Position numbers and translations under genes: made by a program | Virus record (IMG/VR): IMGVR_UViG_3300038679_000021 | Coordinates: 20,560 to 84,559 of that record | Length of the DNA: 64,000 nucleotides | Source of the DNA: a virus | Lineage: Duplodnaviria; Caudoviricetes | Reading direction: 5' to 3' (one strand) | Shown here: positions 14,440 through 64,000 of the stretch, piece after piece | How positions within the stretch are numbered: position 1 is the first letter of the stretch | How the letters are laid out: each line of letters starts with the position of its first letter | Notes under the pieces: generated by a model | Told to the model about the DNA's origin: nothing | Database searches by the model: none | The model's input: only the letters and a program-made list of their open reading frames with translations

Positions 14440-14451
14440 TAGGGCTGGGGA

Positions 14452-14841: not shown

Positions 14842-14857
14842 GATTTAGCCCTTTCGA

Positions 14858-15265
14858 TTACACACTCTGAAGAAGTACCTCATAGTGAATAACATATTGC
14901 CACAGATTTTCACCGGGGTCAAGCTGTTTTTCAAACGTTCTATGACAGTACACCATACTGAAACTTGCGCCACTAAGGCAGACATTATCAAACAAAGTCT
15001 TGGCAAGTTCCGCAATATCCAACGGAGAAGTTGGAGAAATGTCACTGGAGATAGTTAGTCGGAGAATCCCCTTGAAGAAAGTGACATTGTTTCCGGCAGT
15101 TTTCCATACAGAACTCGCCGGAAGAGTCATCACGATGTAAGGACTTGCCGTACCTTTAGGGGCTCTGGTTTGGTGTAACCCTCCAAGATTGGCGGCTCTC
15201 AGGGCAACGGCGGCAGCGGAGGTTCCGTTGTAAGCGGTCATACATGCGACAAAGAGAGGTTTCAT
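14858..15265 (-). CDS. Tail terminator/completion protein
   Basis: RAPKGTASPYIV pattern, ~135 aa, canonical position. Confidence 0.7.
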   Translation of the reverse strand: MKPLFVACMTAYNGTSAAAVALRAANLGGLHQTRAPKGTASPYIVMTLPASSVWKTAGNNVTFFKGILRLTISSDISPTSPLDIAELAKTLFDNVCLSGASFSMVYCHRTFEKQLDPGENLWQYVIHYEVLLQSV

Positions 15266-15774
15266 CGTTTTCCTGTCTTGATGATTCTTAGGACTTTATT
15301 ACTCACTGAAATGTCGCCTAAGATCGGAGTCATATACGGCCTTGGCTGAATCTTTCCGCCGCCAAACTCCAGTAACTCCGCGTAATCTCCGACAACTTTT
15401 GCGTTCCCCCTGTCATCAAATCCTACGAAGTCAGGATCAGGCCCGACAACCGCAGTTCCTTTTCCGGTCATTTGATAGGTGATTGATTGCCTAAGAGTGT
15501 CCGTCTTAACGTAGGGAGGTTCTCCGGGGGACGAATGTTCCTGATCGTCCATGTGTTCTTCCATACTCGCACGGATTCTATCAACTACTTCCTGCGCGGC
15601 TCTTTCGACCCTTCGTTTCATTTCCCTAGTAAGGGCCACACCTACTGCTGCGGATTCGATCTTGACCTTGATGCCTATTCCTTTACGCGCAGAGGTCATA
15701 GTAGCAAGCAAAGCCCTAACCCCCGTGGGCTTTATCCGCCTCCGTATAAACGAACAATCAACAAACCTACTCAC
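15262..15774 (-). CDS. HK97 gp10-like neck/tail protein
   Basis: PGEPPYVKTDTLRQSI...YAELLEFGGGKIQPRPYM motifs; exact start uncertain. Confidence 0.8.
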   Translation of the reverse strand: MSRFVDCSFIRRRIKPTGVRALLATMTSARKGIGIKVKIESAAVGVALTREMKRRVERAAQEVVDRIRASMEEHMDDQEHSSPGEPPYVKTDTLRQSITYQMTGKGTAVVGPDPDFVGFDDRGNAKVVGDYAELLEFGGGKIQPRPYMTPILGDISVSNKVLRIIKTGKR

Positions 15775-16087
15775 GAAGTCTCATCCATAGCTCGGTGTGG
15801 TGTGTCATGCCATGCTTTTGATCCACGTAGAGGACATCAAAAGTCCGCCCCCCATTAACAACACGCGATTTTGAAGTCACCACAGAGTTGGGAAGCATCG
15901 CTAGCTTATGAGTGCTGAAGACTGTCTCTTTCAAGAAGAGCTTCGATTGTTCCTCACCCTGAAGAGACCAAATCCTACAAGGTACAGAAGCGGCAAGAGC
16001 AAAAGTGCTGACTTCGCCACCAGCTTCATCTTGCGTGACAACTGGGGTATGAATCTCGGCTCTGGTATTGAAAGTGATGTGAATCAT
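15767..16087 (-). CDS. Head closure/head-tail joining protein (SPP1 gp16-like)
   Basis: QDEAGGEV...RVVNGGRTFDVLYVD pattern; 106 aa. Confidence 0.85.
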   Translation of the reverse strand: MIHITFNTRAEIHTPVVTQDEAGGEVSTFALAASVPCRIWSLQGEEQSKLFLKETVFSTHKLAMLPNSVVTSKSRVVNGGRTFDVLYVDQKHGMTHHTELWMRLRE

Positions 16088-16090
16088 ACG

Positions 16091-16624
16091 TTAATCCGTG
16101 GTTTCGTTGTAGCTACCAAAACGGTCAGACAGAAAGTGAGCGTCCATATAGGCCAGAGCTATCTCCCCAGTGCCCCACGTGTCCCCAGCAGACAAGCGGA
16201 TAAGCTTCACGTAAAGAATAGAAGAGTAAACCTCGTTCGTCGGCGCGGAAAGGTTAGTAATAATAGTATTGATCTTTTGTTTATACTGATCCGCGCTTGC
16301 CAACGTAATCGTGATAGTATTGGTGTTGGGGAGCGAGGCAGGAATCTCGTCGTTGTGATTATACCAACCCCACGCATAGCTGATCTGAATATCGCCAGCA
16401 GCAGCCGCAATAGGGATGAAGTGAAGGTGGACCGAATCGATAGGTGTACCGAGCGATTTGCGGTGGGGCATCTGAAAGACCATAGAGAAAACATCGTCAC
16501 GCGCAATGTGCGGCATCACTATACCAGTGGAACGGTATTGCCTAGGCGTATAAGTGGTAACGCCAGCAAGGGCTGTCTGAAGGATGCCCTGAATGTCGTC
16601 GTGATACTTATGGGATGTAATCAT
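16091..16624 (-). CDS. Hypothetical virion-module protein
   Basis: 177 aa, coupled to neighbours. Confidence 0.55.
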   Translation of the reverse strand: MITSHKYHDDIQGILQTALAGVTTYTPRQYRSTGIVMPHIARDDVFSMVFQMPHRKSLGTPIDSVHLHFIPIAAAAGDIQISYAWGWYNHNDEIPASLPNTNTITITLASADQYKQKINTIITNLSAPTNEVYSSILYVKLIRLSAGDTWGTGEIALAYMDAHFLSDRFGSYNETTD

Positions 16625-17460
16625 GGAACCCTCATCAGTTCATTGGTGTAGTAGTTTGACTGATAGTAGATGATCGATCTCAAAACAAGATTAGACTCCC
16701 CAACTTCGGAAATGTTAAACCAATTGGTTGCAACACTATTAGTTAAGATAAGGTTTGCTAACCCAGAAGAAAGAAGGGCTGTGGCTAGAGGATCAGTCTC
16801 TTTCGGAGAAGGTGCAACGAAGATAACCCCCTGATTATTGTGCGAAACTACACACCTACCGATAATCAAAGGAGCAGTCTGCCCTTCACCAATGTAATTG
16901 GTGGTGATCGCTCCAGCATTTGTTGATAGATAAAGTAACGCCCCTTCTTCGAACATAGAAGTGTTAAGTTCCCTTACCAATCCGTAAGAAGTAACGATAC
17001 CTTCTTGATTATTGGTAATGTTATGAGTTGCAATGCCGAGTACTCGCGTTCTCAAAGGATTATCGGCATCAGCAAGAGCACCTGAAATCCTATTCCCCGA
17101 CGCAGAAATACAACTTACGACACACCCATTAGAAATCGTCGATCCATGTTTATTTACTATTCTTATCCACTGCTCTTGCCCTACCTGCAACTTCGCAGGC
17201 AAGTCGGGAATTAGAGTAAGGGTATGGTCGTCTACATCCCAGTATACCTGCCCCTCAGTGGTAAAACCATTGTCATACGGAATAAACTGAAAAGACCGAA
17301 TATGGTTAAGGTCATTCGTACCAAGAGAAATCCCATTGGTAAAGACAGGCTGTAAATTAGGATTTACGACAATCCCGTTAGTGTCGGTTTGTAGGTAATG
17401 TCTGATATCCAACCCGAAGCAGCTAGTGGCAATCAGTAGAAGAGGGATTACGTGTTTCAT
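16621..17460 (-). CDS. Signal-peptide-bearing protein with fibre/decoration-like beta domain
   Basis: MKHVIPLLLIATSCFG|L; GIATHNITNNQEGIVTSYGLV...GALLYLS resembles small beta domains in phage appendage proteins. Confidence 0.55.
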   Translation of the reverse strand: MKHVIPLLLIATSCFGLDIRHYLQTDTNGIVVNPNLQPVFTNGISLGTNDLNHIRSFQFIPYDNGFTTEGQVYWDVDDHTLTLIPDLPAKLQVGQEQWIRIVNKHGSTISNGCVVSCISASGNRISGALADADNPLRTRVLGIATHNITNNQEGIVTSYGLVRELNTSMFEEGALLYLSTNAGAITTNYIGEGQTAPLIIGRCVVSHNNQGVIFVAPSPKETDPLATALLSSGLANLILTNSVATNWFNISEVGESNLVLRSIIYYQSNYYTNELMRVP

Positions 17461-18302
17461 ATAGCTTCCACAGTGGAGTTTCCTTCGGAATCGATCTTCA
17501 AGCGCATACCCGCCGCGATGTTGAGCTTGCCGTTGAGGATGGCATCTACCTCTGCCGCAGAGTAAACAACAGAATCCAAGGGGGTAATCGTCCCACCAGA
17601 GACTCTAGTAGCAGTCTCAGGCCCGTTGAGGAACAAGGAAGCCATGGAAACATACCGGCTGAGAATTCGGTCGATCTCAAGGAATCCAGTGAGAGAGTTT
17701 CCCTTCGCGAGACGGGAGTTGTTCATGAACGAAATCGAGAAATCTCCGATAGAGTAACTCCCAACCCCCGCAGGAGCCATTCCGGACTGTCCGGGGAGAA
17801 GAAGCTCGAAGGCATAAAGACAAATGGCCCTCTTGATCTCCAAAGGGGTGGTAAGCATGCCCCAGACCCCCGTAACCTGATAGTTCCTCTGCCCCGGCAC
17901 AAAGACGTACCCTCCAAGGGCGACGATCCTGCGGCGGCGGGAGTGGGGTCCGGTGGGGATGGGTGACAGGTAGTGGTGGCAGTTCGTGTAGTCTTCGTTC
18001 TCAACTAAGTCGTAAGCCGTGGAGATTACTCCGTCGTTCCATTCGAGTTCTTCCACCTTGGTGATGGAGAGAAGAGGATACATGATCGCGGGAGGGAAAG
18101 TCAGGGTGTTGTCACGGGCTCCATCGATCTGCCACACTTCGGAAAAAGCCCCGAAACGATTCTGAGTGACTCTTTCGAAGATTTCCTCAGTCTGGTTCAG
18201 AGCGGCCTGAATTTCAGAGTCGGAAAAGCTACTTACCGGAATTGCTGTTCCGTCTCTGCCTTTGAAAGCCCGGAACTCGGCGATTGAAACGTAGTTGCTC
18301 AT
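17457..18302 (-). CDS. Head-tail adaptor (gp6/gp15-like)
   Basis: Likely start MSNYVSIAEFRAFKG; Y.S..E..., IERVTQNRF, PLEIKRAICL, SYSIGDFSISF motifs. Confidence 0.8.
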   Translation of the reverse strand: MSNYVSIAEFRAFKGRDGTAIPVSSFSDSEIQAALNQTEEIFERVTQNRFGAFSEVWQIDGARDNTLTFPPAIMYPLLSITKVEELEWNDGVISTAYDLVENEDYTNCHHYLSPIPTGPHSRRRRIVALGGYVFVPGQRNYQVTGVWGMLTTPLEIKRAICLYAFELLLPGQSGMAPAGVGSYSIGDFSISFMNNSRLAKGNSLTGFLEIDRILSRYVSMASLFLNGPETATRVSGGTITPLDSVVYSAAEVDAILNGKLNIAAGMRLKIDSEGNSTVEAI

Positions 18303-18397
18303 GTCTGTTTCCTTGAAAAGTTCCCTGCAATCGTGTGCAGATAGCAAACCGGGGTGAGACCTTTCGATCCCACCCCGGCATCATACCGCATTTTCGG

Positions 18398-19102
18398 CTA
18401 GCGATCAATCACAGCCGTGAATCCGCCAGTCGTAGCCGTGGTGCCTCGCGTGGCACGAATCAGCATGCGATTGGGAATGTAAAGGCCGTCACTGAATTCA
18501 CGATTCAGTTGCACTGCCTTCAACTGAGTAGTGGCGACAGAGTTGAAAACACCAGCGTACTGGGTCTCATTCCACACCAGATTACCACCCGAATAGATAC
18601 TCAGCGTGATATCGCCAGTACCACCGACATCGCCAGCGACAGACTTCAGCATACCTCCACGCGCCGAGAGGCTGTAGTGCAACGCCGTCGAGGTATCGTA
18701 CATCACCGAAGTGATCGTTCCGTTCGTGAGGGTATACGTACCATCGAGCAACTCGCCATCCGTCGAATCAGTCGTCAGCGAGTACTGCGAATCCACGACG
18801 ATAGGCGTCGTAGTCGTAGTCCCACTCACGTAGATACACGCCTCAAGAGCAGCCCGCAACTCCGCAACCGTATCGATGGTGCTATCACCAGCAACCGTGT
18901 TGGTAGTCGTACCGATAATCACCGCCATGTCATTGGCCGCGCCGTTCGTGGTCACGACGAACTTTCCGGCAACGCCGGACTGATCGAGCGTGATCGTGAA
19001 CGCGGGAGAGGCATCAGCGGCAATGTACTCAGGAACCGGAGCGGCAGAAACAACCGCAGCAGCCGTGAGCGCAGCAAACAGAGCAATCAGACTCTTCTTC
19101 AT
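18398..19102 (-). CDS. Signal-peptide-bearing T/A/G-rich protein immediately downstream of the capsid genes
   Basis: Probable start MKKSLIALFAALTAAAVVSA|AP at 19102 (internal to the listed ORF); strong SPI-type signal; GC3-rich codons like the capsid gene. Confidence 0.7.
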   Translation of the reverse strand: MKKSLIALFAALTAAAVVSAAPVPEYIAADASPAFTITLDQSGVAGKFVVTTNGAANDMAVIIGTTTNTVAGDSTIDTVAELRAALEACIYVSGTTTTTPIVVDSQYSLTTDSTDGELLDGTYTLTNGTITSVMYDTSTALHYSLSARGGMLKSVAGDVGGTGDITLSIYSGGNLVWNETQYAGVFNSVATTQLKAVQLNREFSDGLYIPNRMLIRATRGTTATTGGFTAVIDR

Positions 19103-19106
19103 CGCA

Positions 19107-19394
19107 TTACCCTTTCGTGGAAACCGTCGGGACCACAAGCTTAACAGGCTCAGGCTTCGCCGGGGCTTCCTTTGCCTCAACTTCGACTGCTCCCTCTCCC
19201 GGAGGGACATTCGTAGCATCCTTCGACACCGACATCTTCGGAGGAACCGAATCAGGAAGCTGAATACAGAGACCCTTCTCGATAAGCAGATTGCCTTCAT
19301 CAGAACTTGCCTCAAAAGGCGTCAAACGAGGGACTTCCACCCCTGAAATCGGCGTCGTGATCTTCCAGAACCTATTTCGCGCTTTCAGAATCAT
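19107..19394 (-). CDS. Small protein after the major capsid gene (possible packaging/decoration accessory)
   Basis: GAGG RBS and ATG at 19394; Pro/Ala/Glu/Lys-rich tail. Confidence 0.6.
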   Translation of the reverse strand: MILKARNRFWKITTPISGVEVPRLTPFEASSDEGNLLIEKGLCIQLPDSVPPKMSVSKDATNVPPGEGAVEVEAKEAPAKPEPVKLVVPTVSTKG

Positions 19395-19413
19395 ACAAAA
19401 CCTCAAGTTAGGA

Positions 19414-19442
19414 AGGGGGCGGTAGGGTTAGTACCGCCCCCT
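19414..19442 (-). terminator. 11-bp GC stem-loop after the major capsid gene (weak U-tract)
   Basis: AGGGGGCGGTA-N7-TACCGCCCCCT. Confidence 0.6.
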
Positions 19443-19451
19443 CCATCGGAG

Positions 19452-20507
19452 TTAGTCGATCACGTAGTCCGCGCCATTGACGCCGACGTTCTTCGCGATA
19501 ACCACCGCGTCCGCGTTCTCAACCGCGAAATCGCAGCGCGTATGGATCGTGACTTCCCACTTGTCCTGCCGGGGAACGCGATCCCACTCAATCGTGATGT
19601 CACGCTGAATGAAGTAGATCAGGTTCTTGAGCGGAGTCAACCAGATGGACGAGCCATCCGTCGCAGGGGTGCCGCCGACCGTATAGGCCAGATCGGTCGG
19701 GAAGAGAGGAACCTCGAACTGCGGAATCCCGAAGGGCTTGCCGCCGCCGCCGATTTCGCGGAAGCGAGCAACCGTATCATTCGGAGTACCACCACCAGAA
19801 ACCGCGCCAACCTGCGTCATGTCATACGCCCACTTATCCCAAGCGCGGCTGGAGACCACGAAGCGATAGTTGGGGAGAGCAGGACGATAGCGAGCGGGGA
19901 TCGCACTCTTCATCTTGTAGTAGAGAGCCGCAGACGCATTCGCGCCTTCCGCGTCAATCTGCTGCGAAGGAGTCGGAACAGCGGTCTGAAGCAGAGCTTG
20001 ATAACCGTTGTTGTCGCCAAGCAATCGCTGAAGGGCCGTGCCATCAGGCGTGGCCGTATACGAGCCCTGAATACCAAGCATCTCCATGTCGATGGCAATC
20101 TGCTTGGTGAATATATTCAGGAGCTTGTCACGGACGTTCTCGCCCTCGATGTTGTCCTCAAGGAAGTCCGAGGTCAGATCGAACGCCGAGCGCAGCTTGC
20201 TCGTATCGTAATCGACCTTCGACGCCGAAGGCTTAAACGTACTCGTACCCGGAGCGCGGGTCGATTCCGTCACAGTCTTACCGAGGTCGATCTTGTTGAT
20301 TTCACCCGAGGGGTGATCGATCTTCGCAAGACGCACCTGCTTGAGAAGCTGCGAAACATCGACCATCAGATCGATGAAACGGTCAGCCTGTTGACGCGTC
20401 AGAATCGAATTCGAAATCTGCGCGGTGTCGATAACCTCGCTCGTAGCCGCCTTGTTAAGGAGACGCTCGATGCTCAGTTTGCCAAGGACTTCATCGCCAA
20501 CACTCAT
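19452..20507 (-). CDS. Major capsid protein (HK97 fold)
   Basis: 351 aa, LTRQQADRFIDLMVD, IYFIQRDITIEWDRVPR...TIHTRCDFAVENADAVV; strong GC3 bias; follows protease/scaffold. Confidence 0.92.
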   Translation of the reverse strand: MSVGDEVLGKLSIERLLNKAATSEVIDTAQISNSILTRQQADRFIDLMVDVSQLLKQVRLAKIDHPSGEINKIDLGKTVTESTRAPGTSTFKPSASKVDYDTSKLRSAFDLTSDFLEDNIEGENVRDKLLNIFTKQIAIDMEMLGIQGSYTATPDGTALQRLLGDNNGYQALLQTAVPTPSQQIDAEGANASAALYYKMKSAIPARYRPALPNYRFVVSSRAWDKWAYDMTQVGAVSGGGTPNDTVARFREIGGGGKPFGIPQFEVPLFPTDLAYTVGGTPATDGSSIWLTPLKNLIYFIQRDITIEWDRVPRQDKWEVTIHTRCDFAVENADAVVIAKNVGVNGADYVID

Positions 20508-42198: not shown

Positions 42199-42448
42199 CT
42201 AGTACCTCCTTGATTCTCCGTTGTTCTGCGGCAGCATGAAACTGCCGCACTTTGGTTAGATCAAAATCGCGAGGGTTGATGCCAAACTTCTCGCATTCAA
42301 AATCAAATCTCTCTGCTACTGCTTCGTCTGATACGGATGCCTGCCTTCTTCGTATTTCCGGAATAAGCTCATCTTTCGACAAACCCGGTGGGGGTTCCTG
42401 TGGGGGTTTCATCAACGTGTATAGGTCCAGTAACCGACTCATTGCCAC
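42170..42448 (-). CDS. Hypothetical protein
   Basis: 92 aa; overlaps the HNH gene 3' end. Confidence 0.5.
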   Translation of the reverse strand: MAMSRLLDLYTLMKPPQEPPPGLSKDELIPEIRRRQASVSDEAVAERFDFECEKFGINPRDFDLTKVRQFHAAAEQRRIKEVLDEPDDENSD

Positions 42449-42902
42449 TCCTGATTCTGTTCAATTGAGCAAACCTTCCAAAATGCTTTACAGCGGCTAG
42501 ATTGTATGCGGTTGCTGCGAGTTCAGGCGATTGGAAGTTACCAAGGGAAATGCGCTTCCCATTAACTCGTATCATCGCCCGATACGTTCTCCCATCCTTG
42601 TAAACTCCTTTGTAGTCGATCATTCCGTAAACAGTATGGATGTTCTTGGCATTCTCAGATTGGGTGCATACGCGTAGATTACTCCTTCTATTATCTAGGG
42701 TGTCACCATTTACATGGTCGCAAACCATTCTTGAAGTCTCGTCCAACCCCATAAGAAAGCGGTGCATCATCGTATGTTTACCCGATGATTGCCGTATGTA
42801 GATTTGCCCGTGGCTTCTGCAAACTGTCCAGTTATGTTGCGAGATGATCTTGAAATCATCGTCGTCTATCTGAACAGCTACACCTTTGACTAGAAAGTTC
42901 AT
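42369..42902 (-). mobile_element. HNH homing endonuclease with AP2 DNA-binding domain
   Basis: CDHVNGDTLDNRRSNLRVCT (HNH); YKGV...YRAMIRVNGKRISLGNF..PELAATAYNLAAVKHFG (AP2). Confidence 0.92.
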
Positions 42903-43052
42903 ATTCGTAAAGAGGAATGGGGTTGAAGCAGGTTCGGCATGTATAACAGATATCTTGATGAAGGAGTACACCAAGACTCCCCTACCGCCCTTACCTCCGG
43001 ACGCTCCAAGTAGTTAGAGCAACCAGCCCGTACACGCTGGCCCCGGTGAGCT

Positions 43053-56381: not shown

Positions 56382-56645
56382 CTAGGGTTTGGGAGTCTCC
56401 CGCTTGCCTAGCATCGCAAGCTTGTAGCATCCGAGTCCGGAATCATGTGCGGTATCCGCTGCCTGTGCGAGAATCCCGCAGAATTCCGAAAAGGAATCCC
56501 GCTTGGCCGTGCGGAAAAGCTCCGCCGCGGTAAAGATTCGGCCATGCGCGGGGCCTTTGGCGTTCAGTGCGGTCAGCATATCGGCCCGGTATCCTTGCGC
56601 GGCGGTCGTCGTCGCGGTCGTCGCGGTCGTCGTCGTCTTCTTCAT
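56382..56645 (-). CDS. Early small protein, paralog of 60652..60879
   Basis: Start MKKTTTT; shared C-terminal EF.G.LA...D...DS.LGCYKLA..G.RE. Confidence 0.75.
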   Translation of the reverse strand: MKKTTTTATTATTTAAQGYRADMLTALNAKGPAHGRIFTAAELFRTAKRDSFSEFCGILAQAADTAHDSGLGCYKLAMLGKRETPKP

Positions 56646-56686
56646 TCTGGCCTTTCCGGCGGGAGGGTTGTCTCCCGCTCGCGATA

Positions 56687-56714
56687 ATTCTAGCAAAGTT
56701 TCCGGCGTTGTCTA
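56687..56714 (-). promoter_or_regulatory. Sigma70-like promoter
   Basis: TAGACA-16-TAGAAT with TGn extension. Confidence 0.6.
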
Positions 56715-56820
56715 TCGTTTTTTGTGTTAGGATTCTGTTAAGGAATGGTTAGGAAAAATGTGATGAAAAAGTCAATTCGTGTTATCGGTTCAATTTCCGT
56801 GCCATCGCCGTTTTTGATAA

Positions 56821-57083
56821 TGTGGGAAAATGCTTATCATTTTCAAAGGTGATTTCCCATTATCATATTTGATTATCAGATTTGATAATGCCTCATTGTC
56901 AATTTCACCTATCAAATTTGGCAACAGGACATCAGATTTGCTTATCAAATATGCTTATCAATTCTGGTAACAGACATATCAGATTTGATAAATCATCTTT
57001 GCCATTGTGGGAATTGATAATGTCATTTTGCAGAATGTCAAAGGTGATATTATCAGATTTGCCAATTTGGGAATTTTCCCACA
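56821..57083. repeat. AT-rich array of ~7-8 (T/C)ATCA(G/A/T)ATTTG-type repeats with three DnaA-box-like TGTGGGAA/TTCCCACA sites
   Basis: Copies start at 56861, 56874, 56910, 56930, 56943, 56977, 57051 (degenerate 56956); box-like sites at 56821, 57006, 57075. Confidence 0.8.
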
Positions 57084-57400
57084 GACTGCCCGAATGAGGG
57101 AAACCCATAAGTGACCACCAACTTAATGCCACAACAGGTTTTCTTACAGGTATCGCAACCGTGCCCCTTGCGACCGACGACCACTATACAGCCTCAAGAC
57201 TTCCGACAAACGACATGGCAAGCCTACAGAACTAGAAAACCACCACGGGGCAATCCTCACCATTGTTTACAGACAACAGAACTGACTCCCACTGCGTTTG
57301 CATAAAGGCCACTACCAAACTTAACCAAAACCTTTATTTCCTTACAGACCCCACATGGGGTGCGCGAAAGAGCCTAGCTGTTACGCTAGGTTCCGTCTTC

Positions 57401-57751
57401 TCAGTTCCAGTTTTCGCGGATTTTTTCGAGGATGGTCAACGGGTCTCCCTCCGGTTCCATGAGATGTTGGATCAGAGCCGCACGGATCAGCCTCATATCC
57501 ATATCGCAGGGTTTCACGATGATCTGTCCTTCCCTCTCATTCAAGATCTGAAATTCCACGAGCAGTTCATTTCCGCAAATCTCAGAGAAGAGGATGCGGG
57601 ACCGCCAGAAGCGGAGGATCAGCGTGTTGATGTCCACGATCTCCCCGTCTCCCTCGATGTAGACGGGCTTGTTATAGTTCATGATCGCATCGGCGACGGT
57701 GATTTCCGTTTCCCTCGCCGGGTTATATCCGCCAATTCTCATCGTTGTCAT
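57401..57751 (-). CDS. Early hypothetical protein
   Basis: Own promoter and RBS; likely start MTTMRIGG. Confidence 0.65.
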   Translation of the reverse strand: MTTMRIGGYNPARETEITVADAIMNYNKPVYIEGDGEIVDINTLILRFWRSRILFSEICGNELLVEFQILNEREGQIIVKPCDMDMRLIRAALIQHLMEPEGDPLTILEKIRENWN

Positions 57752-57793
57752 TCTGTCCCTTCCGCGGGTTGTGGCCCGCTTGTCTAGGGTGGA

Positions 57794-57822
57794 AGTTTCG
57801 CATGAGAACGGCAGAGTGTCTA
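57794..57822 (-). promoter_or_regulatory. Sigma70-like promoter (leader family B)
   Basis: TAGACA-17-GAAACT, TGn; leader similar to 60197-60264. Confidence 0.55.
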
Positions 57823-58048
57823 GCAGAAAAGTACCGGAATTTTTCGAGACCTGACAGACAACAATACAACTAACAACGACCGTGCCGCCGCCGCGCATTT
57901 TAACCAGAACCAAGGGCGTGTTGAGCGCGTCGGGCACGACCCACGACGCTAGAGACCACTAGGTATAATCTTTTCATAACGCATGGAGGACTACAGTACT
58001 TAATCCTATCAGGGGGAATCGTACAGACGCCTTATTGAGCAGAGACGG

Positions 58049-58073
58049 GAAAGCCCCGGTTCCTAGCCGGGGC
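58049..58073 (-). terminator. Intrinsic terminator
   Basis: GCCCCGG/CCGGGGC stem then TTT on the minus strand. Confidence 0.6.
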
Positions 58074-58085
58074 GATTCCACTACT

Positions 58086-58400
58086 CTAGAGGTTTCCCAT
58101 CCAGTAGATCAGATGCTCGATCCCCGAGCAGGCCAACCACTCCTCAGAGGCTTCGTTGCGGTCCTTGATCGTGATATCGAAGGACGGACCCAAGTGCCAG
58201 TCATCGAAAGGCTCAAGCCCGTTCATCGGTCCCTTTTTGTAGGGGAGGATCACGGCCAGTCCTTCTTCCCCTTCGTAAACCACCGGAGCCCTCTTCCGCG
58301 CCTCGATGATTCCCTCATCGGAGATCGGCACCACAAGCCAGAAGTCTCCATCCATCAATTCCAGTTTCGCGGTCCTCGCTTCATGCAGTTCACCACTCAT
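58086..58400 (-). CDS. Early hypothetical protein
   Basis: Likely start MSGELH after promoter and leader. Confidence 0.65.
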   Translation of the reverse strand: MSGELHEARTAKLELMDGDFWLVVPISDEGIIEARKRAPVVYEGEEGLAVILPYKKGPMNGLEPFDDWHLGPSFDITIKDRNEASEEWLACSGIEHLIYWMGNL

Positions 58401-58437
58401 CTTGCCCTTCCCTTTCTGGCCTTTTGCGGCCTGAAAG

Positions 58438-58466
58438 ATAATCGCAAATCCGACGGAAGTTGTCCA
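58438..58466 (-). promoter_or_regulatory. Sigma70-like promoter (leader family A)
   Basis: TGGACA-17-GATTAT, TGn. Confidence 0.55.
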
Positions 58467-58496
58467 TCGGAAAGTGCGATTATTTTCAGCCACAAC

Positions 58497-58808
58497 TCAG
58501 TAGATTCTGGAGAGAAGCAAAGCCTTCCACAACTGGAGGCTTTTCGCTTCGCAGGAAAGCCATTCCCCAATCGTGAGATCGGAAGTGATCTTCACGACTT
58601 CAATCGTGGTATCCCAGAATTCGGAGTGCCGAAGGACCACTCCATCCTCTTGGTTCAGGAGGACAACATCCGGATGTTCTGCGCTTCCGAAATGCGCCAA
58701 CAACTCATTCCTCGCTGCATTCGTTTCGGTGAATGCGATCCAACAACTGTGATCGCTTCCGTCTTCGTAAATCCCGTCGAAGTGAAGCAGTCCAATCTTA
58801 CTACTCAT
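58497..58808 (-). CDS. Early hypothetical acidic protein
   Basis: Likely start MSSKIG; GAGG RBS. Confidence 0.65.
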   Translation of the reverse strand: MSSKIGLLHFDGIYEDGSDHSCWIAFTETNAARNELLAHFGSAEHPDVVLLNQEDGVVLRHSEFWDTTIEVVKITSDLTIGEWLSCEAKSLQLWKALLLSRIY

Positions 58809-58844
58809 CTCATCCTCTTTCTGCGGATTTCGGCCCGCAGATGT

Positions 58845-58873
58845 AGAGTAGTAAATCCAACGGAAGTTGTCTA
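58845..58873 (-). promoter_or_regulatory. Sigma70-like promoter
   Basis: TAGACA-17-TACTCT; spacer nearly identical to the 58438-58466 promoter. Confidence 0.55.
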
Positions 58874-58975
58874 TAGAAAAACGAAAGAATTTTTCAGCAA
58901 CCACCGTGCCTCGCGCGTCACGACCCTACAACATGGCGCGGAGAAGCCCATGGTTTCCCATGGGCCTCCACCACT

Positions 58976-59215
58976 CTAGTGCTGCCCGGTCGCCTTCAGA
59001 TAGGCTTCCGATACGACTCCATGGAGTTTCTCCCAGAGTTCATGGTCTTCCCTCGACCACTCCCAGTAGGCTCCGAATGCGGCGGGCTGGAGCATCAACA
59101 ACTCCGAGTCCAGTTCTCCGGAGATTTTCTCCAGACGACTCCGAATGTCCTCCAGTCGGATCAGGAATTCGGTTTTCGTCTCCGGCTCACGACTATGGCT
59201 GATTTTCTTTCCCAC
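58976..59215 (-). CDS. Early hypothetical protein
   Basis: Likely GTG start after GAGGGAG. Confidence 0.6.
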   Translation of the reverse strand: MGKKISHSREPETKTEFLIRLEDIRSRLEKISGELDSELLMLQPAAFGAYWEWSREDHELWEKLHGVVSEAYLKATGQH

Positions 59216-59253
59216 GACTCCCTCTGCCTTTCTGGCCTTGTGCGGCCAAGTGA

Positions 59254-59282
59254 ATAATCCCAAAATGACGATGAGAAGTCAA
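59254..59282 (-). promoter_or_regulatory. Sigma70-like promoter (leader family A)
   Basis: TTGACT-17-GATTAT, TGn. Confidence 0.6.
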
Positions 59283-59470
59283 TAGGAAAAACGATGAATT
59301 TTTCAGGTATTTTCGCGACCACCGTGCCGCCAGCGCACTACCGACCACCGACGACCATTCACCACTGCACTTCATATCCTAGTGACAGGAAATAGACTAC
59401 AAAACTTAACAGGAAGTTTCCCATCCTTACAAGTGTAGGGACAGGAAACTTAACCTCTTTTCTTGAAGTC

Positions 59471-59740
59471 TTACTCGAAGAACTGCCGAACCTTGACTGC
59501 CTCATCGTGGATGGTGAACAAGAACCCAAAGTAGTCTTCGGCCTTGTCACGGGCCGCGTCTGTCAACAGCAGGCCCCACCTATTCTGGATTCTGTTCCAG
59601 ACAAACCGGAGATGCTCGTAGTTCCACGCGGATTCCTGCATGGAGATCAACAGCCAGAGAGGCCCGTAGATGAACCGGAGATTTTCCTTCTCGGCGACTT
59701 CCATTGCCAACAGATGCCCTAGCACTTTTACCATTTTCAT
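59471..59740 (-). CDS. Early hypothetical protein
   Basis: 89 aa; GGAG RBS. Confidence 0.6.
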   Translation of the reverse strand: MKMVKVLGHLLAMEVAEKENLRFIYGPLWLLISMQESAWNYEHLRFVWNRIQNRWGLLLTDAARDKAEDYFGFLFTIHDEAVKVRQFFE

Positions 59741-59805
59741 TTCGGTCTCCTAAAAGAGAACCCGCGCCGATGCGAAAGGGACACCGGCGCGGGAGGGGGA
59801 AGATG

Positions 59806-60045
59806 TTACAGAACCCGGATGGTTCCTCCGAAGTTTTCTGCCAAAACGGTGCAGAAGGTGAAGAGGTTCGTGACCGACTCCGCTCCCATCCGGAGGATCA
59901 TGGCGAGGACTTCCTCGATGGAAGTATCCATGTACGGGACTTCCGGGTGATTCTGGTCGGCGGGCATCAGGGGGAACGAGAAGCTCCCGTTTCCGAAGAG
60001 ACAGAAAGCCTGCATGTCTCCCACGTTCTTGAGGCGGATTTTCAT
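59806..60045 (-). CDS. Early hypothetical protein
   Basis: ATGA overlap with upstream ORF. Confidence 0.6.
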   Translation of the reverse strand: MKIRLKNVGDMQAFCLFGNGSFSFPLMPADQNHPEVPYMDTSIEEVLAMILRMGAESVTNLFTFCTVLAENFGGTIRVL

Positions 60046-60191
60046 TCTTCGACACTCCATGTCTGGAAGTCCCGCGACTCCCGTTCGATGTTACGGTTGC
60101 GAATCTCCCTTGCGAGACTCCCGATCAAGAGGATCAGCACTGCGGTAATCAGCACTCCCTCTCCGATCCTTCCGTTTTCCAGCACTCTCAT
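60042..60191 (-). CDS. Small single-TM protein
   Basis: GVLITAVLILLIGSLA hydrophobic segment; AAGGA RBS. Confidence 0.55.
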   Translation of the reverse strand: MRVLENGRIGEGVLITAVLILLIGSLAREIRNRNIERESRDFQTWSVEE

Positions 60192-60235
60192 CCGATCCTT
60201 TCCGGCGGGGTGTGGCCCGCTCTTTCGATGGTGGA

Positions 60236-60264
60236 AGTATCGCATGGGAACTATTCCGGAGCAA
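60236..60264 (-). promoter_or_regulatory. Sigma70-like promoter (leader family B)
   Basis: TTGCTC-17-GATACT, TGn. Confidence 0.55.
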
Positions 60265-60290
60265 GAAGTTTCTGCAAGTATTTTCAGCTA

Positions 60291-60473
60291 CTACATCGCC
60301 GCTTCGGTGATCTCGCGGACAAACTCCGGGTGCTTCTTCAAGTCTTCGCGGAAGATACGCACAGTGGTAGCGATGGTATCCTCCATCCCGTATTCCGCGA
60401 TGACTTCGGTGATCGGGATCGGATGCTTGCCGACTCCCGCCAGAATCTCTCTGAAGAACTGCTCAATCGTCAT
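60291..60473 (-). CDS. Early small protein
   Basis: Likely start MTIEQF. Confidence 0.6.
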   Translation of the reverse strand: MTIEQFFREILAGVGKHPIPITEVIAEYGMEDTIATTVRIFREDLKKHPEFVREITEAAM

Positions 60474-60508
60474 ACTTGCCTTCTTTCTAGCCTTTTGCGG
60501 CTGGAGAG

Positions 60509-60537
60509 ATAATCGCAATTTAGACAGAATTTGTCAA
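60509..60537 (-). promoter_or_regulatory. Sigma70-like promoter (leader family A)
   Basis: TTGACA-17-GATTAT, TGn. Confidence 0.65.
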
Positions 60538-60618
60538 TAGGGTTCGACAAGATATTTCAAAGACGACCGTGCCCGGTGCGACTGACGACGACGAACGCCC
60601 AATCACTTCACATGGAAA

Positions 60619-60640
60619 TACCCCGCATCGCTGCGGGGTA
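60619..60640 (-). terminator. Intrinsic terminator
   Basis: TACCCCGCA/TGCGGGGTA stem then TTT. Confidence 0.65.
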
Positions 60641-60651
60641 CTCCGTTTAGA

Positions 60652-60879
60652 CTACTGGGCCTCGCGGGAACCGGCCAGCGCGAGCTTGTAGCACCCCAAC
60701 TTGGAGTCCCCCATCTCGTCGGTAATCTCCGCGAGAACGCCGATGAACTCCTTGAGGGAATCGCCCGACGTTGCGTAGAGCTTCACCATGTCCTGCACCC
60801 GTTCGTGCGCCGGGGACTTCTTGGCGGCGACTTCGGCCATGGCCTTGCGAACCTGCGGGTCCAACTTCTTCTGCTTCAT
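60652..60879 (-). CDS. Early small protein, paralog of 56382..56645
   Basis: AAGGAG RBS; LGCYKLA motif. Confidence 0.75.
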   Translation of the reverse strand: MKQKKLDPQVRKAMAEVAAKKSPAHERVQDMVKLYATSGDSLKEFIGVLAEITDEMGDSKLGCYKLALAGSREAQ

Positions 60880-60923
60880 ACTACTCCTTCTGATTGGGTT
60901 CCTTCCCAATCGTTACAAGTGTG

Positions 60924-60952
60924 AGTTTACATGATTTAACGAAGAGATGCAA
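60924..60952 (-). promoter_or_regulatory. Sigma70-like promoter
   Basis: TTGCAT-17-TAAACT. Confidence 0.6.
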
Positions 60953-61140
60953 GCAAAAAGAACCGATTTTACGATTTATTTTAGCAACTCCACATGCTTA
61001 TTTGAGCAACAGACGACGGCGACATTTGTGCCACGACGCACGACTGACGACTAGACATGGTTTCACTTGAAGTCTGAAAGAGAGGACAGAAAACTTAACG
61101 CCACTTAAAGGAAGCTTACAGATGCTTACAAGTACGCGAA

Positions 61141-61164
61141 GAAGCCCTCTGTTACGAGGGCTTC
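61141..61164 (-). terminator. Terminator-like hairpin
   Basis: GAAGCCCTC/GAGGGCTTC stem just after the 61175 stop. Confidence 0.55.
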
Positions 61165-61174
61165 TCGTTGTGGG

Positions 61175-61732
61175 CTACAGAGCCCCGTGGTATGCCTTGG
61201 TCATCTTGTAGTTACGAGCGTTCTCCATCTGGAACCGCTTCTGGGTGAACTTCACTTTGAGTTGCCCCGCGAGACGTGCGATCTTGTCGTATCCCCAACC
61301 GGCCTTGAGAAGCTCCCCAACGAGATCGGCCTTGTTGCTCTCCCACGCGTCGGCATCCATCAGGATACGAGCGAGTTGCTTCATCCCGCCCACGGTGTTC
61401 AGGGCTTCTCGGACTTCCGCCTGTTGCTGATCCGCGAACTCTTCCATGATCCGGAAGAGGATCACAGCCATCGGGCGTTTCTGTGCGAGAGTCTCCTTAC
61501 TGACTTTCTTGGTTTCTTCCTTGTCCATCGCGGCATGAACAAACTCGTAGGCTGCGGCGTATTTCTCGCCGGACAGCCACTTGTTCGCCAGTTGGATACG
61601 GGGTGCCATCCCGAATCCCATCTCCACCATCAGGGCATCCATCGCGGCCACAATCGTCTGGGACCGCTCCGGCTCTTTCGCGAGCAACAATCCGTTCGTT
61701 GCCCTCATACCCTTGATCTCTTCTCCGTTCAC
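61175..61732 (-). CDS. Early hypothetical helical protein
   Basis: 185 aa, GC3-rich, own promoter. Confidence 0.7.
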   Translation of the reverse strand: MNGEEIKGMRATNGLLLAKEPERSQTIVAAMDALMVEMGFGMAPRIQLANKWLSGEKYAAAYEFVHAAMDKEETKKVSKETLAQKRPMAVILFRIMEEFADQQQAEVREALNTVGGMKQLARILMDADAWESNKADLVGELLKAGWGYDKIARLAGQLKVKFTQKRFQMENARNYKMTKAYHGAL

Positions 61733-61772
61733 TCTTCCCTCGCCTTTCTTCCGGAATCCTTCCGGTGCCTGT

Positions 61773-61800
61773 ATCCTAGCATAGTAACGGAGAGTGTCAA
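61773..61800 (-). promoter_or_regulatory. Sigma70-like promoter
   Basis: TTGACA-16-TAGGAT, TGn. Confidence 0.65.
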
Positions 61801-61865
61801 AGCTTTTACGAAAGATATTTTCAGCATACTGACCGGAACTGCTCCTGCGGCACGCGATGAAAAGA

Positions 61866-61896
61866 CCCGCTGGGGGAAAGGCGTAACCCCAGCGGG
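61866..61896 (-). terminator. Intrinsic terminator
   Basis: CCCGCTGGGG/CCCCAGCGGG stem then TCTTTT. Confidence 0.7.
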
Positions 61897-61913
61897 CCTA
61901 GGTGGAAACTTGG

Positions 61914-62288
61914 CTACTGCGGCTTGTAGTTGACGATCTGCTCGATCATGCGGTGGAGATCGGTCGTGGACAGCCTCTCCCCCACGAAGGGAGCGACGTA
62001 GAACATCAGATCGTCCATGGGCATTCCCCGCTGCGCCATGCGTTGAATCGCGATGACGAGATGCTCGTTCTTCACCGCGAACATGCGCGGGAGGAAGTTC
62101 GTCGTCAACTTCTCCCGGAATTCGTAACGGCCATCCGGCATCTTGTTCGTGTGGAACGTCTGCCCCGCCGTCAACTGGAGATCGACCTCGAATCCGTCCC
62201 GCGAGATCAGGCACAGCTTCCGGTCAACTTTCAGGCCGTCGCTTTCCGAAGCGTCCACAATCCCTCCGTTCACACTCATCTTATGCAT
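61914..62288 (-). CDS. Early hypothetical protein
   Basis: AAGGAG RBS before MHKMSV. Confidence 0.7.
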   Translation of the reverse strand: MHKMSVNGGIVDASESDGLKVDRKLCLISRDGFEVDLQLTAGQTFHTNKMPDGRYEFREKLTTNFLPRMFAVKNEHLVIAIQRMAQRGMPMDDLMFYVAPFVGERLSTTDLHRMIEQIVNYKPQ

Positions 62289-62337
62289 TCTCCGACTCCT
62301 TCTTCTTGCGGGATCGGTATGATTCCCGCTGGTATGG

Positions 62338-62365
62338 ATTCTAGCAGAATGCACTGAAAGATCAA
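62338..62365 (-). promoter_or_regulatory. Sigma70-like promoter
   Basis: TTGATC-16-TAGAAT, TGn. Confidence 0.6.
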
Positions 62366-62387
62366 GAAGAAAATACTAGAAAAACTC

Positions 62388-62405
62388 CCTGCAATCGATT
62401 GCAGG
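62388..62405. promoter_or_regulatory. Perfect 18-bp palindrome CCTGCAATCGATTGCAGG upstream of promoter
   Basis: Read directly. Confidence 0.75.
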
Positions 62406-62458
62406 TAACGACCGTGCCCAGTGCGCCACGACCGACGACGGCCACATGAGAGACAAGA

Positions 62459-62488
62459 GAAAGCCGGGGGCCACTGGCACCCCCGGCT
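62459..62488 (-). terminator. Intrinsic terminator
   Basis: AGCCGGGGG/CCCCCGGCT stem then TTCTCTT. Confidence 0.65.
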
Positions 62489-62505
62489 CCACCGAACCGC
62501 TCGTG

Positions 62506-63195
62506 TTAGCTCGGTGACGCTCCATGATCCTTCCGCCACGCGATTGCGGGAGGAAGCGAACAGTTCAACCGATCCGGACAGTCATCGCACCTGTGGCCGT
62601 CGGCGGGATCTTCACCATCGGGATCACCGGGCTCCCCGATGCGGATACCTCCGAGGATTTCCTCCAGACGCGTCATCAGCGCGTCACCGGAAAGTCCCGC
62701 GAAAGGACTGGCGGCTTTCCCCGCGACCTTCTCCGTGACCTTCAGGACTCCTCTCGCGAAGTCCACGATTGCGTTCGACTTCAGATCGTAATCACCGAGA
62801 TCGGCCAACTTCGTGAGAAGCGGAGTCGGAACGTTCTCGTTGAACTCCCGGAGAACCTGCATCTCGATTGAGTGGAAGATCACCGTTCGGAACTTCTCGT
62901 CCATCGCGTTGAACTGCCGCACAAAGGAGTTGTAGTCCGGAACTCCTTCGATGGACCTACCCGCCTTGGCGATCTTGTGGTTGATTCCCAACCGGATCGA
63001 CGTGAGAAGAATCTGCGCGGGATGCCCAACGGAGGCCATCCGGGACATCCTGCGGAGATCGTCCACGCGCGCCTTGATGTCATCGCGACGTTCGCGGAAC
63101 GGCTCTGTCATCGTCGTCGGGAGACTCGCGAGAATCTCCACGATGAAGTTGAAGAGATCGGTCACCAAGCTCAGGACTGTCTTCATCAGGTTCAT
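62506..63195 (-). CDS. Early hypothetical protein with C-terminal CxxC..C motif
   Basis: 229 aa; GAAGGAG RBS; HRCDDCPDRLNC. Confidence 0.7.
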   Translation of the reverse strand: MNLMKTVLSLVTDLFNFIVEILASLPTTMTEPFRERRDDIKARVDDLRRMSRMASVGHPAQILLTSIRLGINHKIAKAGRSIEGVPDYNSFVRQFNAMDEKFRTVIFHSIEMQVLREFNENVPTPLLTKLADLGDYDLKSNAIVDFARGVLKVTEKVAGKAASPFAGLSGDALMTRLEEILGGIRIGEPGDPDGEDPADGHRCDDCPDRLNCSLPPAIAWRKDHGASPS

Positions 63196-63431
63196 TCTTC
63201 GACTCCTTCTTCATCCAACTCCTCAGAAAGGTTCAGCGACCCTCCGAGGATAACTGACGGGTCATCTGCATCGGGGACTTCCCGCGCAAAGATTTCCCGC
63301 ATCACCTTCTTGTTCTCGCGGACGATTTCATCCACGCTCATTCTCGTCTCCCAAAAGACGGGCGGGAGGGGAAGAAGGAGGAAGACCCCTGCGCCGCCCT
63401 ACTGAAATCTGCGTACTCCTTCTTCATTGGA

Positions 63432-63635
63432 TCACTGCTGCTGTTCGGACGGGGGCTTCGCCATCGTGAACCGCTTGTCGGCCACCGCGATGTCGCGGAG
63501 TCGCACCCAGCTTTCCCCGTACATCGCACGCTGGGGAGGCTTGCTTCCCGGAACGATGTTGTCGCGGACTCCCCGCTTCTTCAAGCGGTTGAACAGGGTT
63601 TTCCCGCTTCCGTAGTACGGCTTTCCGGTCTTCAT
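63432..63635 (-). CDS. Small basic early protein
   Basis: AAGGAG RBS; ATGA overlap. Confidence 0.55.
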   Translation of the reverse strand: MKTGKPYYGSGKTLFNRLKKRGVRDNIVPGSKPPQRAMYGESWVRLRDIAVADKRFTMAKPPSEQQQ

Positions 63636-63775
63636 TCCCAGAACTCCTTCTGCCCCGGACGGGGGCGGCCCTTCATGCTGACCTTCGGGCACTCCTTCGT
63701 TTCGTGATCTTTCCCGCACCAGCGGCAGGGATACTCATCCCGGTTCCGCTTCCGCCACTGCTTCCGCATCTGCAT
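63632..63775 (-). CDS. Small basic zinc-knuckle-like protein
   Basis: CRWCGKDHETKEC (C-X2-C-X3-H-X4-C); GAGGAG RBS. Confidence 0.6.
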   Translation of the reverse strand: MQMRKQWRKRNRDEYPCRWCGKDHETKECPKVSMKGRPRPGQKEFWE

Positions 63776-63818
63776 CACTGTCTCCTCTTCTTTGCCAGTG
63801 GTATTCTGGCGTGAGTGC

Positions 63819-63847
63819 ATTCTAGGGTAGGCGACGGAGAATGTCAA
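63819..63847 (-). promoter_or_regulatory. Near-consensus sigma70 promoter
   Basis: TTGACA-17-TAGAAT. Confidence 0.75.
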
Positions 63848-63888
63848 TAGGTTTACGGAATTTATTTTCAAGAAACTACGGAAAGATT

Positions 63889-63908
63889 ACCTGCAATCGT
63901 TTGCAGGT
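63889..63908. promoter_or_regulatory. Palindrome ACCTGCAATCGTTTGCAGGT (one mismatch) upstream of promoter
   Basis: Read directly. Confidence 0.7.
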
Positions 63909-64000
63909 TGAGACGACCTACGACCGTGCCGAAGGCGCACAGACGACGACGCACCACCACGAAGGTACGACCACGAGGTATGACCAAAGGTAGGATAAAA

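Follow-up and report, generated by a model that had tools for sequence, protein, structure and literature searches.

An invariant, oriented 18-bp site at terminator-promoter boundaries in the early gene array of an uncultured tailed phage

Introduction

T4-type phages carry PeSLs, composite terminator/promoter sequences that have been implicated in insertions and deletions (PMC4122927). We describe here an early gene array of comparable anatomy, at positions 56687-64000 of a 64,000-nucleotide window taken from IMG/VR virus record IMGVR_UViG_3300038679_000021 (Duplodnaviria; Caudoviricetes; record positions 20,560 to 84,559), in which an asymmetric 18-bp site built on the 8-mer ACCGTGCC recurs, always in the same orientation, between the terminator of one transcription unit and the promoter of the next. 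Coordinates are window positions unless the contig is stated.

The sequence-only reading that preceded this work had likened the array to T4-type PeSL cassettes, and the anatomy does fit the PeSL account (PMC4122927): in both, a terminator stem-loop and an early sigma70 promoter flank small orphan genes of a variable region, and unrelated open reading frames (ORFs) are joined to related regulatory sequence (PMC4122927). The composite arrangement appears here as nine hairpins followed by promoter-like sites, 13 against 3.7 expected. The difference lies between stem-loop and promoter, where this array has an invariant oriented 18-bp site with heptads and the PeSL descriptions, in the portion cited, have none. 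The phage is not a T4-like myovirus: no T4-like core matches were found, and it has a tape-measure protein, a GpA-type terminase and a one-strand gene order.

Three other systems invite comparison. The T5 pre-early region also combines small, poorly conserved genes and several strong host-type promoters with a large, repeat-dense untranslated region that follows them (10.1101/866236). The T5 region belongs to a long terminal repeat at the end injected first and carries A1, A2, and dmp; family searches of our early ORFs found no homologs of these genes, no terminal repeat is known for our phage, and the ends of our contig are assembly ends. Iteron-type operators, such as the omega protein heptads of pSM19035, the lambda Xis sites, and the asymmetric P1 C1 operators, resemble the present site in two respects, direct repeats with a 7-nt period and an asymmetric site that precedes multiple promoters belonging to a single regulon, whereas the core described here is a unique 18-bp block and no ribbon-helix-helix or winged-helix protein was recognized. 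Strand-specific nick sites form the third system, and the cited parts of the literature give several consensus sequences: R/GCGCRGG in T5, CGACxxxxxCCTA/CTCCGG on the non-coding strand in the phiKMV group, and TACT/RTGMC in phage tf, with 14 sites all on the top strand and seven of them in the first 22% of the genome (PMC3517423). For LUZ19, the nick motif was termed "the only detectable intergenic motif" in the section cited (PMC3604761).

The early promoter-terminator cassette region is a known kind of array, while the invariant oriented site with its heptad flanks is undescribed as far as our searches reached; a literature word search for the two 8-mers returned unrelated topics only, probably primers.

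An invariant and oriented site

Seven exact copies of ACCGTGCC are present, all on the plus strand (57158, 57879, 58903, 59321, 60566, 62411, and 63923) and all outside called ORFs, as the sequence-only reading had reported. The count is far from chance, since 100 dinucleotide shuffles of the window gave a mean of 1.25 copies and a maximum of 3, and none reached 7. An independent k-mer scan ranked the same word first among clustered 8-mers. Nor is the motif equally common elsewhere: a search of the whole 84,559-bp contig found no other copy on either strand.

Read in the direction of the genes (minus strand), the site is CGC-N4-GGCACGGT-N-GT, asymmetric and 18 bp long. The 8-mer, CG at -7/-6, and G at +9 are kept in all seven copies, and C at -5 and T at +10 in six; the core itself can be divided into three heptads. 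On the plus strand, the four nucleotides before GCG noted earlier are found in six copies, the exception being the copy at 57879, which has CCG. The 30-nt flanks, by comparison, show a pairwise likeness of just 35% and 31%, and the bases in the N4 gap look random. An invariant block beside such dissimilar flanks points to selection on a discrete 18-bp block and not to recent duplication, and we rejected passive duplication on these grounds. The site is also better conserved than the promoter hexamers, as no -35 or -10 hexamer is invariant across the 11 promoters of the array. The copies are as follows (promoters P1-P11 and hairpins T1-T9 are listed with the array below).

63920..63937, minus strand: site copy 1, 75 nt before the P1 -35 box; the contig end is 63 nt upstream
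62408..62425, minus strand: site copy 2, after T1 and 45 nt before the P2 -35 box, with an 18-bp palindrome between site and promoter
60563..60580, minus strand: site copy 3, after T4 and 28 nt before the P5 -35 box, abutting an UP-like tract
59318..59335, minus strand: site copy 4, after hairpin T6 and 38 nt before the P7 -35 box
58900..58917, minus strand: site copy 5, after T7 and 29 nt before the P8 -35 box; the sole copy with the full sigma54-like GGCACG-N4-TTGC
57876..57893, minus strand: site copy 6, with CGG replacing CGC, ~160 nt after T8 and 56 nt before the P10 -35 box
57155..57172, minus strand: site copy 7, ~200 nt after T9 and followed by AT-rich repeats; P11, the next strong promoter, is 443 nt off
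61022..61039, minus strand: degenerate co-oriented copy (at 61025, TTTGTGCC on the plus strand, GGCACAAA on the minus strand), 72 nt before the P4 -35 box
56793..56810, minus strand: degenerate co-oriented copy (at 56796, TCCGTGCC on the plus strand, GGCACGGA on the minus strand), 81 nt before the P11 -35 box
61834..61854, plus strand: inverted degenerate copy in the spacer before P3, 76% complementary to copy 4 over 21 nt

Place at the boundary between units

The elements of the array follow a constant order: terminator hairpin, site, optional palindrome, UP-like tract, -35 box, -10 box, leader stem-loop, and ribosome-binding site. An exact or degenerate co-oriented copy occupies seven of the eight long terminator-to-promoter spacers. 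The two promoters that directly follow genes (P6 and P9) have no site, and P3 has the inverted degenerate copy only.

The distance from site to -35 box is 28, 29, 38, 45, 56, or 75 nt, in agreement with the 29-76 given previously once the counting of ends is allowed for, except that the copy at 57158 stands 443 nt away with the AT-rich region intervening. Site centres fall at roughly -70, -71, -80, -87, -98, and -117 relative to the promoters, that is, on two faces of the helix. A fixed-face activator site was rejected on the basis of these two helical phases, and the previous view that an activator acting from a fixed position could not accommodate such variable spacing is confirmed, the distances not being helically phased.

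Flanking heptads and other spacer repeats

On the plus strand, ACGAC occurs at 3.69/kb in the array against 0.32/kb in the remainder of the contig (11 times denser). The array holds 27 copies, 22 of them between genes, and every one of these 22 lies within -12 to +64 nt of an exact or degenerate copy of the site. CGAC spacing peaks at 7 nt (nine pairs). The (C)GAC repeats that had been seen to follow the motif are therefore real, as judged by both enrichment and spacing; the GTGC-N-GCAC form suggested for some copies is found, as GTGC-N7-GCAC, in two of the seven (63923 and 59321) and not in the rest. The degenerate copy at 61022..61039 is flanked by three contiguous ACGACNN heptads (61033-61053). 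The tracts are as follows.

62428..62441, plus strand: ACGACNN heptad tract beside the site, an example of the type
57171-57182, 59342-59356, 60579-60593, 61033-61053, 63913-63926, and 63942-63951, plus strand: similar heptad tracts from the repeat scan

The spacers hold further repeated words. The two that had been listed before were both recovered: AAACTTAAC at 57317, 59402, 59446, and 61091, which are all four of its plus-strand copies in the contig, and TTACAAG at 59427, 60913, and 61126. A second module, common to the three longest spacers, consists of AAACTTAAC together with CTGTAAG/CTTGTAAG and GACTTCAAG words; at 59411-59456, two AAACTTAAC copies flank or form a hairpin of -22 kcal/mol. 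Between site copy 7 and P11 lies an untranslated AT-rich region of ~400 bp (56720-57100) with dense direct repeats of the ATCAGATTTGATAA type, TGTGGGAA boxes, and long inverted repeats whose 29-nt arms are 79% complementary. The region may serve as an origin of replication or as a place where several proteins bind, and both its location and its complexity are reminiscent of the repeat region that closes the T5 pre-early block.

Two palindromes also lie in spacers, and look like an operator of a dimeric regulator for the first two units.

62388..62405: palindrome of 18 bp without mismatch, separating site copy 2 from the P2 UP tract
63890-63907: near-identical palindrome with one mismatch, before P1, between site and upstream tract

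A candidate docking site for a sequence-specific protein

Our tentative reading, held at somewhat less than even confidence, is that the site is a place of duplex-DNA recognition where a sequence-specific protein would dock and insulate or shut off the early units. The asymmetry of the site, its one-sided heptads, its co-orientation with transcription, and its constant place at the boundary together suggest a duplex-binding protein arranged head to tail, and the specific bases within the 18-bp block are about one helical turn apart. Single-strand folds of the seven elements differ from each other, and none is significant against shuffles (z -1.18 to +1.84); an Rfam search returned 0 matches at E up to 1. 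Since there is no consistent fold, recognition of the duplex sequence is the simpler reading, and a structured RNA (nut/put-like or a small RNA) or DNA element was rejected given the seven differing folds and the Rfam result.

Candidates for the binder are the orphan early proteins and host factors. On the promoter-distal side the core is followed by between one and four heptads of the GTCG type, which would permit cooperative, head-to-tail binding, and the bound protein would mark the unit boundaries and control the early units as a set. Most likely it would act as an insulator or at a shut-off operator: it would halt polymerases that run through terminators with weak tails or, alternatively, keep polymerase from the region just upstream of the promoter. 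As the promoter distance is variable and unphased, we favor insulation or shut-off over activation, and a role as a face-of-the-helix activator site is unlikely. We infer that there is a binder at all, and likewise what it is and in which sense it acts.

Several points weigh against a docking site of this kind. No binding protein was found: the early ORFs have no family matches, and a structure-atlas look-up of g2, the second ORF in the numbering of the array, returned nothing usable (best score 0.77; predicted local distance difference test, pLDDT, of the stored model 0.43). Operators usually tolerate variation, and perfect identity over 8 bp is more typical of enzyme targets. The -35 distance is variable and unphased (28-75 nt, and 443 nt), so that any direct contact with polymerase must be loose. 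Three promoters (P3, P6, and P9) lack a co-oriented copy. Finally, comparative support is absent because none of the relatives searched carries the site.

Alternative explanations

Among described objects, the localized nick sites of phages come closest to the exact core. The site could be a phage nicking target like those behind the interruptions of T5, phiKMV-like phages, and tf, with a one-strand break in virion DNA at each copy that would block read-through or relieve torsion until it is ligated; we consider this unlikely, though it is the main rival. It has in common with known nick sites an exact asymmetric consensus in several copies on one strand only (seven on the plus strand and none on the minus strand in 84.5 kb), and the early genes have as their template (non-coding) strand the plus strand, on which the exact core and the CGAC units form a bipartite layout. 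In phiKMV-like phages, too, the nick sites lie between genes on the non-coding strand and have two parts, one of them a CGAC unit (PMC3517423, PMC3604761). The contig moreover encodes an HNH endonuclease (42369-42974), and the core differs from the tf variant ACTGTGCC at one of eight positions, a lead only, with an estimated chance of such a match of ~5% given the comparisons made; however, tf itself leaves un-nicked its own variant with C at the position where our core differs, according to the same part of that report (PMC3517423). The phiKMV, tf, and T5 sites also have other sequences than ours (PMC3517423, PMC3604761). The nick sites on record range across half of a genome or the whole of it, whereas ours all fall within 8% of the contig and keep to terminator-promoter gaps, a restriction that nicking would not call for. 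That a programmed template-strand nick between every early unit serves as a removable boundary and torsional swivel until host ligase seals it seems to us decidedly unlikely; if true, it would supply a function for the long-unexplained nicks of the T5, phiKMV, and tf type and extend them to a new lineage that probably infects Planctomycetota. Transcription offers another explanation, in which the site is all or part of a promoter for a second machinery in tandem (an RNA polymerase, sigma factor, or activator encoded by the phage, or else host sigma54), giving two-phase early transcription; this is improbable. Phage-specific promoters usually show themselves as just such conserved and oriented blocks in the intergenic DNA ahead of genes, and the ~16% of the genome that is missing could encode a polymerase. 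Family scans of 51 and 33 window and contig proteins (two sets) nonetheless found neither an RNA polymerase family nor a sigma family, no conserved bases follow the site at a constant distance, and the site is absent before middle and late genes. The sigma54 consensus is TGGCACG-N4-TTGCW, with GG at -24, GC at -12, and fixed spacing. The GGCACG of the site fits the -24 box, with GG in all seven copies, and the copy at 58903 reads GGCACG-N4-TTGC exactly, but a correctly spaced -12 GC occurs in two of the seven, the upstream T before GG in none, and the CGC-N4 part is outside the consensus; a sigma54 promoter was rejected accordingly. We also rejected a two-block promoter of the extracytoplasmic function (ECF) type, with a GTCG-to-CGT gap of 15-20 nt in which the invariant 8-mer would be mere spacer, and a small ORF across the element, as the ATG of the recurring CATGT meets an immediate stop in two copies.

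We considered two further explanations. The site might have no function of its own and be part of a mobile, PeSL-like promoter-terminator cassette, a region of homology or crossover point at which early ORFs are shuffled. The regulatory cassettes are indeed related (61-86% identity) where the ORFs are not, one paralogous pair (g7/g16) aside; neutral homology would decay evenly, however, and here an 18-bp block is invariant beside random-looking bases, its own N4 included. Scans of three protein sets (51, 19, and 33 proteins) found no integrase or recombinase family, RecA and RusA being the only recombination proteins, the searches yielded no close relative that might reveal breakpoints, and we regard this explanation as distinctly improbable. 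An integron-like cassette array was rejected for the same lack of a recombinase among scanned proteins and because the site has no consistent flanking inverted repeat. We hold it highly improbable that the site is a Chi-like polar signal, with co-oriented 8-mers that divert a host nuclease of the RecBCD/AddAB type from phage DNA ends or rolling-circle tails. A cluster of exact co-oriented copies is what makes Chi arrays protective, and an exact, strictly co-oriented 8-mer with several copies within a few kb is what we see, in a phage with its own RecA and RusA. Yet five positions beyond the 8-mer are also conserved, which Chi does not need, the copies are tied to promoter gaps, and there is no sign that the array adjoins a DNA end. 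In five Planctomycetota genomes, chosen as holders of distant terminase relatives, the 8-mer is 1.2-1.5 times as frequent as its reversed control (5/5), which is weak evidence against Chi given that the host is not identified. The sequence-only reading had also proposed a signal acting on first-injected DNA, an idea that finds no support here because the array sits at what is only the assembly end of an 84%-complete contig; the opposite contig end bears a co-oriented replication module, and the terminase is of the GpA type, which in lambda goes with a cos site beside the terminase genes.

Anatomy of the early array

The region 56687-64000 is ~40% non-coding sequence (with 4425 of 7314 bases coding). 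Scanning for promoters gave 13 sigma70-like sites where 3.7 were expected, and all but one are on the minus strand; these 12 lie in the last 9.5 kb, while elsewhere there are mostly 0-2 and at most 6 minus-strand sites per 5 kb. Together with the nine hairpins below, this bears out the modular layout of promoter, ORF(s), and terminator that had been proposed. The eleven promoters P1-P11 combine scan sites with four placed by eye (P4, P6, P8, and P10). They are as follows.

63819..63847, minus strand: promoter P1, TTGACA-N17-TAGAAT (scan)
62338..62365, minus strand: promoter P2, TTGATC-N16-TAGAAT (scan)
61773..61800, minus strand: promoter P3, TTGACA-N16-TAGGAT (scan); no co-oriented site upstream
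60924..60952, minus strand: promoter P4, TTGCAT-N17-TAAACT (by eye)
60509..60537, minus strand: promoter P5, TTGACA-N17-GATTAT, with TG before the -10 box (scan)
60237..60264, minus strand: promoter P6, TTGCTC-N16-GATACT (by eye); directly after g8, with no terminator or site
59254..59282, minus strand: promoter P7, TTGACT-N17-GATTAT (scan)
58845..58873, minus strand: promoter P8, TAGACA-N17-TACTCT (by eye and by alignment with repeat family D1)
58438..58466, minus strand: promoter P9, TGGACA-N17-GATTAT (scan); directly after g13, with no terminator or site
57794..57822, minus strand: promoter P10, TAGACA-N17-GAAACT (by eye)
56687..56714, minus strand: promoter P11, TAGACA-N16-TAGAAT (scan); drives g16

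Every promoter is preceded by an A/T-rich, UP-like tract of the TGAAAA type. The predicted leaders of P1-P11 (56642-63812, minus strand) all begin with a 5' stem-loop, in which the stem has 4-7 bp and the loop usually 6 nt, ahead of an unpaired, purine-rich ribosome-binding site of the AGAAAGG type; judged from these predicted folds, the stem-loop is probably an mRNA-stabilizing 5' structure common to the cassette. Regulatory repeat families D1, D2, D4, D6, and D9 span leader, -10 box, -35 box, UP tract, and site at 61-86% identity. Units are closed by nine post-gene hairpins of -14 to -27 kcal/mol with pyrimidine-rich tails, as follows.

62460..62490, minus strand: terminator hairpin T1, after g4, -24.8 kcal/mol
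61863..61899, minus strand: terminator hairpin T2, after g5, -27 kcal/mol
61137..61167, minus strand: terminator hairpin T3, after g6, -21 kcal/mol
60615..60644, minus strand: terminator hairpin T4, after g7, -23 kcal/mol
59761..59793, minus strand: terminator hairpin T5, after g10, -26.2 kcal/mol
59411..59456, minus strand: hairpin T6, -22.1 kcal/mol, after g11; of the four AAACTTAAC copies, two fall in the arms and flanks of this hairpin
58944..58967, minus strand: terminator hairpin T7, after g12
58048..58079, minus strand: terminator hairpin T8, after g14
57366..57397, minus strand: terminator hairpin T9, after g15
56382..63775, minus strand: small ORFs g1-g16 (ORF calls), of 47-229 aa, in 11 promoter units

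Pfam gave no match for any of the 19 small ORFs scanned, which include the 16 of the array, and PHROGs gave a single faint match among the same 19, to g1. The sole paralogous pair in the array is g7 (60652-60879, minus strand) and g16 (56382-56645, minus strand), which share 45% identity across 64 aa. At its 5' end, the coding sequence of g16 consists of an (ACGACG)n run that specifies poly-Thr/Ala and is complementary, on the same strand, to the (GTCGTC)n tracts of the spacers. The first ORF after P1, g1 (63632-63775, minus strand), encodes a very basic protein of 47 aa with a CX2CX4HX4C zinc-knuckle pattern; the usual ligand of zinc knuckles is single-stranded nucleic acid rich in G and T, and the spacers have a G/T-rich sense strand (40% G, 26% T).

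Genome setting

The contig of 84,559 bp is classed as linear and 84% complete (CheckV). The window is its last 64,000 bases, and the window end is hence the assembly end of an incomplete contig. All long ORFs of the whole contig are on the minus strand. In transcriptional order, the genome as assembled begins with the small-ORF array (64000 to ~56400) and then the AT-rich repeat region of ~400 bp, 3' of which come MazG, thymidylate synthase, methyltransferases, radical SAM enzymes, an aminotransferase, and glycosyltransferases. Further along are an O-like initiator and a ligase, and then a ParB-like protein, the large terminase, portal, capsid, and tape-measure protein, the last marking the phage as a long-tailed type. 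Contig positions 1-20000, outside the window, continue on the same strand after the tail genes with a DnaB-like helicase, a primase, a family-A polymerase, an SNF2 helicase, RecA, RusA, and a MoxR-type ATPase. The large terminase is of the GpA type (PF05876), and the terminase genes lie ~30 kb from the array; the HNH endonuclease gene is at window positions 42369-42974.

A large set of DNA-modification genes at window positions 27000-54700 comprises three radical SAM proteins, an aminotransferase, a WbqC-like protein, glycosyltransferases, several methyltransferases, thymidylate synthase, and MazG, and suggests that the DNA is hypermodified.

Relatives, host hints, and public sequence data

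No cultured phage is close, the best terminase identity being 22%, and the array has no DNA match. Terminase homologs at 45-58% identity were found on contigs of ~100 kb. In five IMG/VR records of terminase relatives, GGCACGGT occurs 0-3 times per strand, not above control, and a clustered k-mer scan of three terminase relatives returned tandem arrays only; these relatives are more AT-rich, and the promoter-density scan is too noisy to place their early arrays. Among the array proteins, the 229-aa protein adjoining a site is an orphan, and g4 has no relative in the viral_contigs set, its match in a large protein database being itself only.

Matches outside the terminase relatives did not lead to the same element. 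We rejected 31 loci matched through MazG as phage relatives, as a terminase was found in none of the four records tested and there was no motif cluster. A scan of the collection with the extended motif returned at least 120 loci, and 29 of 120 had two or more co-oriented copies, on high-GC contigs. The 22 multi-copy loci viewed were rejected because the word lies there in long, high-GC sequence that looks coding (GGC-ACG-GTC codons, by eye); these 22 have neither terminator-promoter gaps nor GTCG flanks.

Matches to the terminase profile in genome_contigs were all (7/7) in Planctomycetota assemblies, at 33-36% identity, one of them labelled Brocadiia, a weak hint in terminase similarity that Planctomycetota may be the host range of the wider phage group. 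When 20 kb of DNA was searched against 401 Planctomycetota genomes, almost only the low-complexity (ACGACG)n repeat of g16 matched (104 of 401), and no spacer-like match was found in the same 401 genomes.

Parts of the array are present, as assembled contigs, in four groundwater DNA runs and two groundwater RNA libraries. The contigs from these public runs contain no variants, no joints, and no loose end at the end of our contig. All 13 RNA-library contigs are 100% identical to the window; 10 lie within predicted promoter-to-terminator spans and two further downstream, and none of the 13 spans a promoter. They fit expression of the units as drawn, with strand and ends that are not readable and with DNA carry-over possible, and gaps in their cover carry no evidence. 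One RNA-library contig (57834-58077) covers the spacer after T8, including site copy 6, and ends just before the P10 -35 box; it could reflect read-through, a small transcript, or DNA carry-over.

Significance

Practical value is limited for now by the phage being uncultured, by a host that is not identified, and by there being no relative with the site. Early promoter arrays with orphan genes are nevertheless how many lytic phages take over their hosts, and only for a few model phages is it understood what keeps the early units apart and what turns them off as a group. The site marks nearly every terminator-promoter boundary and so provides a handle for finding the factor involved, which might be a host protein, a nickase, or a regulator. 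Should it prove to be a nick target, the site would link an old and unexplained feature of phage DNA to the organization of transcription units; if it is an operator, it would define a new regulator in a lineage that may infect Planctomycetota, whose transcription control is little known.

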